A stretch of 64,000 bases of DNA from Eledone cirrhosa (lineage: Eukaryota), in contig OZ024740.1 of assembly GCA_964016885.1 (NCBI GenBank), positions 334,738,001-334,802,000 of the forward strand. The letters run 5' to 3'. Position 1 is the first letter of the stretch. The number at the start of each line of letters is the position of its first letter. Shown piece by piece: positions 7,663 through 62,987 of this stretch. The position numbers were made by a program, and so were the translations under genes. The notes under the pieces are model-generated. The model was not told the DNA's origin. It ran no database searches and worked only from the letters and a program-made list of their open reading frames with translations.

Positions 7663-7846
7663 GTTATTCCGGGTTGAATCGGAGGTAACCACAGTAGGTA
7701 AGGTACTCAATACATAGCAGAGTATAACAGTTTTAATATAGATGAGATTCTACATGACTAGAACTGTTTCATTCATTAGAAATCATCAGGTGATGATTTC
7801 TAATGAATGAAACAGTTCTAGTCCTGTAGAATCTCATCTATATTAA

Positions 7847-7850
<4 letters not shown>
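7662..7850 (-). mobile_element. TA-flanked fold-back element with partial hammerhead motif (pLTR-like)
   Basis: 60-bp arms at 7729-7788 and 7791-7850 with one mismatch. The minus strand reads CTGATGA-tttc-taat-gaat-GAAAC-agttcta-GTC. (TA)n lies on both sides. A sibling copy is at 43728-43894. Confidence 0.8.
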
Positions 7851-7888
<38 letters not shown>

Positions 7889-35280: not shown

Positions 35281-35924
35281 ATATTCATTAGTTAAGCAAA
35301 ACAAGACCACACATTTCACAAGGAAGACATTATTAAAAGATTGTCAACATATTTTAGTTTGATGTAAGGAATGTAGAGAATAATAATAATATATTAATAA
35401 TAATAATGTCCGTTTACAATTGTTTCGCTACTCCATATAATATTTCTGGATCAAATGACTATATATCATTATTTATATTCCTTTGAAGTTCCGATGAGCT
35501 GCTCTGTTTTTAAATATGTTAATTATTTTCAACTGAACGAGATCAATAATGATATATAGTCATTTGATCCAGAAATATATGGAGTAGTGAAACAATTGTA
35601 AACGGACATTATTATTATTAATAATATTATTATTATTCTCTACATTCCTTACATCAAACTAAAATATGTTGACAATCTTTTAATAATGTCTCCCTTGTGA
35701 AATGTGTGGTCTTATTTTGCTTAACTAATGAATATTTCTAGCTCTGCGCGCCTAACTTCTGCATGAACCCAGCCACCTAGCTGCTTTCTACTGTATATTG
35801 CACATTGAGGACATGCCTTTACGCTTTGGCTTCTAACTAATTCACCAATCTCTCCTCTCCTATCGCCTCTCCTATCTCCATCTCTCTCTTTAAGATTGGT
35901 TACTTTTGAACTGTATCTTTCTTG

Positions 35925-40103: not shown

Positions 40104-40360
40104 AGATAGACTATCCGGGAGCTTCCAAGAGTAATGGTTGCATTATTTAAGGGTATGTCAATATTTATTTATAAAACTGCTCTATATTATATTTTATCTG
40201 ATGAAAGCCCACCATAATTTAACTTGGTGTCCTTGAAATATGTATAATGAAATAAATATGGTTTTATAAATATAGTTTCCATTTGTTAATATCGTATTTT
40301 TACTCCAATTATTTGTTGAGTACTTAATATCAGTTATAAAAATATTTGCTTGTTGTATTC

Positions 40361-40445: not shown

Positions 40446-40819
40446 TATAAAGAAAAAGAGATGAAATCGAAAATGCAACTGGAGTCTTATATTTTTTTTT
40501 TTTAAATATATATATTTATTTGGTTCCTTTACCGGTTTCGCAGTTCTTCTGCTTTTCAAAAGTAGAGTTGAGATGGAGGGTCTGTGGTTTTTCTCACATG
40601 TGAGACAACCACGGATGTGAGAAAAACCACAGACCCTCCATCTCAACTCTACTTTTGAAAAGCAGAAGAACTGCGAAACCGGTAAAGGAACCAAATAAAT
40701 ATATATATTTAAAAAAAAAATAAGACTCCAGTTGCATTTTCGATTTCATCTCTTTTTCTTTATACTTTCAATCGTGTAGGACACCTCGGTTATTTTTCAA
40801 TTTGTAAAAAAAACCTCAC

Positions 40820-41063: not shown

Positions 41064-41138
41064 AACACTATAAATAATTCAATCGCCCGGCTCTATCATC
41101 CTATTATGATGCAAGACAAGGCGATTTCATCAGTTGTT
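41064..41138 (-). ncRNA. Hammerhead-like motif, slightly degenerate
   Basis: Minus strand: aacaa-CTGATGA-aatcgcc...ggcgatt-GAATT-attt-ATA-gtgtt. Stem II is a perfect 7 bp. A15.1 is replaced by T and stem I has one mismatch. Confidence 0.65.
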
Positions 41139-58632: not shown

Positions 58633-58867
58633 TTTCTTCCATTTATAACCATTTTCTTTTTTTAATATAAAATGTATAATACAAAATTGAATATTTGAGC
58701 GATATAACAATATATTATGGATCCGAATTTTCTGAGACTTAAGCCGGATGCTTTATGTATCATTTGCACTAAGAATTGTTATTTCACAATTGATTTAAAT
58801 ATGTTAAAAATCAAAACTTACGGGAGCGATTTCCCGACCTTCTATCCACCATGTGCGGCTTCTTCCC

Positions 58868-58923
<56 letters not shown>

Positions 58924-58925
58924 TA

Positions 58926-59291
58926 TGGAAAAATAAATTCCCATTAACATTACAAGGGGTCTGACGAGCCGCAGATTACAGATTCGGGTCAGATCGATAC
59001 AGATCGAACCTTGATCTGATCAGTGGCGAAACGCGCGTCACCAACCAATAAACGTAATGAACGAGTAACCAATCGTCCTTGTTATCTTATTTCACTATAA
59101 AAAAAACTCTGTCTAGCCCTACACCACGACACTGAAGTGAACCTAGACATCGAGTACTCACCCTGGTAAACTTACAGTAACGCCGACTTCCACTCCCCGG
59201 TTATACTTTTTTCCTATTTCACACTCTACTGCCCTAAGTATTGAGTATTCTGGCGCGTTATGGTCCATCTGGTTCCTTACCACAATTCCTT

Positions 59292-59297
<6 letters not shown>
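58926..59297 (+). mobile_element. pLTR-like element with hammerhead, between (TTA)n and (TA)n
   Basis: The HHR near the 5' end is followed by AATAAA. The 3' terminal ~95 nt are shared with the 8003 and 51635 elements. Confidence 0.8.
58958..59042 (+). ncRNA. Type I hammerhead ribozyme with palindromic stem III and extended stem II
   Basis: ggt-CTGACGA-gccgc..gtcagatc..gatctgat..gtggc-GAAAC-gcgc-GTC-acc, then AATAAA. The core is intact, the triplet is GUC and stem III is ACGCGCGT. Confidence 0.88.

Positions 59298-59345
<48 letters not shown>

Positions 59346-62511: not shown

Positions 62512-62987
<476 letters not shown>

Follow-up and report, generated by a model that had tools for sequence, protein, structure and literature searches.

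The hammerhead ribozyme motif at 58958-59042 of the window (by which we mean the whole 64,000-nt stretch of the Eledone cirrhosa genome that was analyzed) is likely, on folding predictions, an inactive relic. We read it as a type I hammerhead left in a truncated Penelope-like element (PLE) of the Hydra clade, of a kind in which cutting would be slow and weakening of the core was tolerated or even favored, and we give this account as a whole a probability of roughly two in three. A sequence-only reading of the window had singled the copy out as its best candidate for an active ribozyme. As a single copy it is ordinary, and the interest lies in its family: in most related copies, the core has changed in ways that are predicted to make cutting weaker or abolish it. 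Why PLEs carry hammerheads in the first place is a matter that has been called unclear (PMC8557442).

That the motif is a type I hammerhead is confirmed, with CUGANGA and GAAA core segments, an NUH site and three helices, and the intact core, 3-bp stem I and 5-bp basal stem II that had been described are all recovered by a descriptor match. When the descriptor demands a stem II base of 4 bp or more plus a palindromic stem III, the window yields one match and 100 block-wise dinucleotide shuffles yield none; a looser descriptor finds 3 distinct cores, where shuffles average 0.38, and the folding z score is -4.0 on the plus strand and -1.0 on the minus strand. The features of the motif and its surroundings are these:

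58958-58960, plus strand: 5' strand of stem I, GGU, which pairs with ACC at 59040-59042 (3 bp)
58961-58967, plus strand: core CUGACGA (C3-A9), matched by the descriptor and canonical in the window subfamily
58968-59027, plus strand: stem II domain of 60 nt on a 5-bp base, GCCGC/GUGGC
59028-59031, plus strand: GAAA core segment
59031-59038, plus strand: palindromic stem III, ACGCGCGU
59039, plus strand: C17 of the GUC triplet, with the predicted cut after 59039
59047-59052, plus strand: AATAAA, a putative poly(A) signal
58948-58953 and 59054-59059, plus strand: predicted distal helix of stem I, 6 bp, pair probability 0.99
58938-59205, plus strand: 5'-truncated copy of a Hydra-clade PLE, consisting of the 3' pseudo-LTR only, by its matches to longer coding copies
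58925-58934, minus strand: 10 nt of upstream sequence from the same element in inverted orientation, with similar junctions at loci L015, L019 and L028
58868-58922, plus strand: (TTA)n tract

The AATAAA reported downstream of the motif is present, but since stem I is predicted to resume as the 6-bp helix, the hexamer would lie inside an internal loop of stem I; across the window subfamily, the flanking duplex is barely better than shuffled sequence (-6.7 vs. -5.2). The short palindromic stem III does have the dimer-type design described for PLE hammerheads (PMC4209133, PMC6765202), and ACGCGCGU forms an 8-bp duplex in our dimer model. An Rfam scan of the window returned no hammerhead among its 133 weak matches (E up to 1), likely because the long stem II defeats the models; with a design that is invisible to Rfam, long-arm ribozymes are undercounted. 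The spurious miRNA matches in that scan are accounted for by long, near-perfect inverted repeats at 40559-40655 and 7728-7851, and a loose hammerhead-like match lies at 40190-40254, with an 8-bp stem I, a 30-nt stem II and an AUA triplet.

What kind of element is this? Sequence like that of 58938-59205 is repeated in high copy number in this 3-Gb genome: 88-91% matches, covering query positions 9-276, lie at 39 other loci (of 4756 candidates, 40 were scored), and a tight pattern finds 181 exact copies genome-wide and 0 controls. The Penelope-type origin that had been proposed is borne out by longer copies, which continue upstream into a GIY-YIG domain that is preceded by reverse transcriptase (RT), the hammerhead and the 3' end of GIY-YIG being joined in 16 of 20 loci. 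RT, recognized by motifs, followed by a C-terminal GIY-YIG is found in the window family (L087, L044/L047) and in a sister subfamily (L186, L193). Longer copies also encode a linker, CNCKKRVEC (CxCX5C), together with HCRLC (CxxC; HCxLC) and CRH (CxH), and have no CCHH cysteines between GIY and YIG. L087 comprises a partial 5' repeat, an ORF (with its RWK/DKT part decayed), a 3' UTR and a hammerhead, and the family's common 3' end falls about 40 nt before its ATG. L193, of the sister subfamily, is a full tandem copy with direct hammerheads 4856 nt apart and with the motifs RWR, DKT, GLYRDDAL, CxCX5C, CxxC and CxH; compared by eye, its type of protein resembles that of Hydra-1_Obim. Membership in the Hydra-1_Obim family is itself ruled out, because the hammerhead of that family differs, and Naiad was rejected on domain order, the endonuclease being C-terminal and not N-terminal. 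Pfam gave a sub-threshold GIY-YIG only and no RT match. Judged by motifs and by-eye comparison, then, the parent of the window hammerhead is a Hydra-clade PLE on every protein and insertion feature tested. Hydra-clade PLEs share the C-terminal GIY-YIG, CxCX5C linker, CxxC, CxH, DKT, RW(K/R) and (TA)n insertion, and near their 3' end they likewise carry a type I hammerhead whose stem III is short and near-palindromic (PMC8557442). At least 25 of 29 copies stop at one shared 3' site that is followed by a TA run, many copies have an inverted partial copy on their 5' side, and a second hammerhead on the same transcript occurs only in full tandem elements such as L193.

The element had been thought to start at the (TTA)n tract. 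Its homology instead begins at 58938-58941, after the inverted piece, and the tract, which was not found upstream of 29 other copies, appears from contigs of the upstream repeat (they run into CTTCTTCCC and then TTA repeats) to be the tail of a different repeat outside the element. Of the 29 other top copies, 8 reach at least 55 nt further 5'. The 5' truncation of the window copy lies about 20 nt upstream of the core, in a T-rich stretch, and this is a hot spot, with 11 of 23 copies ending 19-28 nt upstream of the core. The stretch 58935-58957, just before stem I, also resembles a splice acceptor (a pyrimidine run, TTAAC and AAG/G) and coincides with the hot spot, several copies having added T runs there; in Penelope of D. 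virilis, an intron ends at helix I (PMC4209133). The separate upstream repeat, at 58700-58922, has high contig depth and ends in the (TTA)n tract. On the 3' side, the window copy abuts another repeat, 59199-59344, the 3' end of a high-copy repeat that ends at (TA)n; in longer copies (L002) GAAAC occurs further upstream, which makes another PLE family a possibility.

We turn to the long arm. At 60 nt, stem II is indeed atypical, differing from those of the Hydra hammerheads cataloged by Craig et al. (PMC8557442). In 38 aligned copies, 81.0% of stem II cells pair, compared with 70.8% in shuffles and 26-38% in slid controls, and 128 cells show changes on both sides vs. 56.5 in shuffles; these counts come from related sequences, with basal pairs fixed by the search and a structure drawn from the window family. 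Clear compensatory swaps occur at columns 16-75, 18-73, 28-68, 29-67 and 38-58. A measure of further pair types was not above shuffles (198/500), and RNAalifold returned no consensus structure for the 38 sequences. The alignment includes L167 and leaves out the length variants L099, L100, L106, L130 and L132, as well as L134 and L135, members of another lineage in which stem III reads CUGCAG and stem II, also long (about 40-70 nt), is different. On the strength of the aligned copies, the long stem II was kept under structural selection in the clade, across families, and its role was probably that of a folding aid or a protein-docking module, although that is our guess. Within the arm, the family has an internal loop, AGUC (58982-58985) opposite GAG (59013-59015), in which each position is conserved in 32-37 of the 38 copies and which we take to resemble a bulged-G motif. 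In the window copy, two private G>T changes, at 58983 and 59015, make this AUUC/GAU and so convert the loop into Watson-Crick pairs; each position is G in 29 of 30 other subfamily copies, and contigs from three runs on one sample show the window family and the G alleles at both. The 8-bp distal stem II that had been described is thus present as pairing, but it consists of GAU (3 bp) and CAGAUU (6 bp) around a 2-nt bulge and is partly private. Likewise, the suggestion of a functional accessory domain gains support as selection on stem II structure across families, and not for the window copy, which lacks the very motif that suggests function. Both private mutations add hairpin pairs and could reflect template-switch correction of a DNA quasi-palindrome.

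The long arm was also said to recur in unrelated families at 35488, 41064 and 62740. All three sites exist; none has an intact core in the window, and 62740 belongs to the same clade, so recurrence in wholly unrelated families is unsupported:

35488-35603, plus strand: hammerhead of another family, with a CCGAUGA core (U4C, found in each of 12 copies) and a stem II of 91 nt
41064-41137, minus strand: decayed hammerhead of another family, with a stem II of 46 nt and GAAT in place of GAAA
62849-62936, plus strand: hammerhead of a related family of the clade (family C), with a CCGUCGA core at 62853 and an inverted partial copy at about 62660-62805

Site 62740 is the inverted partial copy of the element whose forward hammerhead lies at 62853, and its family is about 68% identical to the window family (clades about 33% apart). 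The very long stem II at first ascribed to it was dropped once the core was recognized as CCGUCGA. Long, near-perfect inverted repeats at 35360-35700 and 62660-62985 are inverted PLE ends. A looser pattern, from which the window family's stem III was excluded, gave 87 matches and 0 controls and exposed diverged families carrying the same long arm.

Could the flagged copy cut? Its active monomer fold is predicted to lie 8.2 kcal/mol above the ensemble, and a helix (UGACG/CGUCA) would pair the core with its own cut site with a probability of 0.95. As a dimer, the active form comes to -76.7 kcal/mol, compared with -74.8 for two monomers and -84.1 for the best, trapped dimer. (Nearest-neighbor folding ignores tertiary contacts, Mg2+ and protein.) PLE hammerheads have been reported to cut poorly even as dimers (PMC4209133, PMC6765202), and one needs protein, its cutting being protein assisted (PMC11167929). 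No second copy of the hammerhead was found in the window, and no same-strand neighbor lies within 10 kb among the 100 matches listed. The proposed search for tandem copies came up empty in the window and in 30 loci; in the sister subfamily, L193 has its tandem hammerheads. A solitary copy without its conserved loop, predicted to misfold both as monomer and as dimer, gives no ground for the label of best active candidate. Nor do break points peak near the cut site: 110 copies break between 59032 and 59055, and a hot spot at the cut site was rejected, the break points being scattered over 20 positions in 30 copies; a scripted search for a junction pile-up at the cut site found none, with 2 of 30 loci, both showing the same junction.

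The family is another matter. Genome-wide, 4,728 long-arm hammerheads were matched by patterns that fix many positions and exclude indel-rich copies (the CCGT pattern also fixed N7 as C): CUGA (CTGA) cores in 1,212 copies, with 0 controls; CCGA in 1,543, with 1; CCGUCGA (CCGTC) in 1,844, with 0; and CUGU (CTGT) in 129, with 0. Sorted by eye, 36 of the 100 CTGA matches listed and 63 of the 100 CCGTC matches listed are of the window family, the other 37 of the latter being family C, which suggests roughly 440 canonical vs. 1,160 doubly changed copies in the window family. The CTGT matches look mostly like CpG decay of CCGT, and the CTGA matches of family C (4 of 100 listed) may be decay of CCGA. 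For the window copy, CTGA is a true subfamily state, because no C occurs at position 4 in the 30 top copies. The tree covers 52 of the 120 copies and takes family E as its root. With the two core positions masked, the AU test rejects one shared origin of CCGT (p-AU 1e-29), and CCGT copies of the A type group together as one clade (99/94) within the window's subfamily; by this tree, CCGUCGA appears to have arisen at least twice, once from the subfamily of the window copy. With these core counts and this repeated origin, cutting looks dispensable and has possibly been selected against. The CCGT subfamilies were not found to be younger (median pairwise distance 0.096 and 0.051 vs. 0.070), so their higher copy number is no proof of advantage. 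On the early branch, the core changed at 2 of 7 positions vs. 8 of 226 elsewhere, an excess that rests on 2 copies. In a mutational scan of a type III hammerhead without a long arm, all single and double mutants of the CUGA region except a C3/G8 swap had low activity (PMC9901934); U4C lowers activity yet supports viroid infectivity, and A6C gives low activity (PMC3088659). With U4C tolerated in a viroid, the 1,543 CCGA copies need not be dead.

How would an element prosper with a hammerhead that hardly cuts? What is seen across copies is the parent element, its (TA)n ends, its tandem and inverted layouts, stem II covariation and four core states, with a common 3' end that lies some 165 nt beyond the cut site, and with sequence from both sides of the site included. 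A hammerhead of this kind would likely need dimerization or the element's protein in order to cut. We infer that reverse transcription would prime internally at (TA)n targets, about 165 nt past the cut site and before the ORF start of a tandem transcript, and that copying would read through an uncut (or religated) hammerhead. A cut at that hammerhead would split the ORF from the priming site, and for this reason slow cutting would be favored and its loss tolerated or even preferred. Two pairs in stem III, together with the core-to-cut-site helix, would hold the rate of cutting down. For source elements, a further weakening of the core (U4C, then A6U) would have cost nothing and may have been a gain, and such elements became the most numerous. 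A parallel is found in Poseidon PAc of Anolis, in which internal priming likewise fixes the 3' end, targets are AT rich and no ends fall at the cut site (PMC11167929), and in which hammerhead mutants did not reduce insertion in vitro. PAc differs in that it belongs to another clade and its ORF starts inside stem II, whereas the ATG of the window family lies about 200 nt downstream of the cut site.

One may push this further and hold that self-cleavage is an outright cost, that selection, at least twice, disabled the core by the same steps (U4C, then A6U) in the lineages with the most copies and that stem II serves a noncatalytic purpose, such as protein docking. We offer that stronger claim tentatively and think it improbable as it stands; if it is true, the genome holds a natural series (CUGA, CCGA, CCGU) with which the purpose of Penelope hammerheads can be tested. 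Somewhat doubtful, too, is the neutral reading, by which the arm was once selected, the ribozyme no longer matters, and U4C and A6U drifted, the repeat of A6U being coincidence or mutational bias. It fits the late CCGT branch, along which stem II changed about as fast as the flanks (7/60 vs. 10/73 positions), the further losses in family C (G10.1 gone, leaving an A-C mismatch at 10.1-11.1, and AGUC changed to AAUC) and the amplification of Naiads without canonical hammerheads (PMC8557442); it sits badly with an identical transversion at an identical core base in two clades about 33% apart, with U4C being fixed in a further family as well (12/12) and with only 1 of the 7 late stem II changes breaking a pair, by our reading of the positions. 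The same convergent double change might instead mean that CCGUCGA still works as a core, with the long stem II, dimer formation or an element protein coming to its rescue. We consider this quite unlikely. The remaining core bases are retained in 12 BLAST-picked family C copies, both changes would make the inhibitory pairing of core and cut site less probable (median P falls from 0.82 to 0.59), and distal contacts can compensate for variant cores (PMC3088659); yet the complete double-mutant scan found no positive epistasis within the CUGA turn (PMC9901934), family C gained its A-C mismatch, and the other core positions were fixed by our search patterns.

Two further readings concern the unit itself. 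An active, dimer-cleaving flagged copy with a functional accessory domain can point to its canonical core, palindromic stem III and covarying stem II, and to an active dimer predicted to lie 1.9 kcal/mol below two folded monomers, but the trapped dimer is 7.4 kcal/mol more stable still, there is no partner in the window or among the same-strand neighbors listed, the loop motif has been erased and the copy stands about 8% from its relatives; we regard it as very unlikely. A non-autonomous retrozyme spreading as circular RNA strikes us as scarcely credible, despite top matches that are mostly solos of about 270 nt and the clustered 5' ends noted above: no head-to-tail arrays occur in 30 loci, longer copies continue into the ORF, and the cut site is not where ends fall. 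In metazoan non-LTR retrozymes, too, a type I hammerhead sits in a short, high-copy, pLTR-related repeat (bioRxiv 10.64898/2026.07.22.740005; PMC7229834), whereas the short copies of the window family are truncations of a coding element and no tandem arrays were found.

Relative to known Hydra-clade PLE hammerheads, what is new is the arm length, the internal loop and the core series. The Hydra and Repbase rows of File S2 in PMC8557442 have a stem II that measures, with its loop, about 10-25 nt, and CUGA cores, although their descriptor may limit length; the window clade has a 60-nt arm, a conserved internal loop and cores that are noncanonical in about three of every four matched copies. The minimal and variant hammerheads described from PLEs are also of type I, with a palindromic helix III and a predicted dimer, and their elements, too, are mostly solo copies of truncated elements, with pairs on opposite strands, but helix II is 6-8 bp, the core covariation described is U3-A8, and we found no U4C/A6U in the portion of that report used here (PMC4209133). 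A literature search, made with terms other than CCGUCGA itself and covering parts of the papers, met no report of a CCGUCGA core or of a 60-nt PLE stem II. The clade thus amounts to matched natural alleles, 1,200-1,800 copies each, with a repeated core change, and for that reason cleavage rate can be compared directly with amplification.

Two smaller observations may be added. Six family E copies carry CUGU(G/A)GA (e.g., C2:150826672, C2:365779945 and C9:45198011), possibly a third origin of A6U. And at L192:4545-5680, a CCGT copy harbors a nested open frame of 379 aa, by appearance the C-terminal portion of another LINE-type element.
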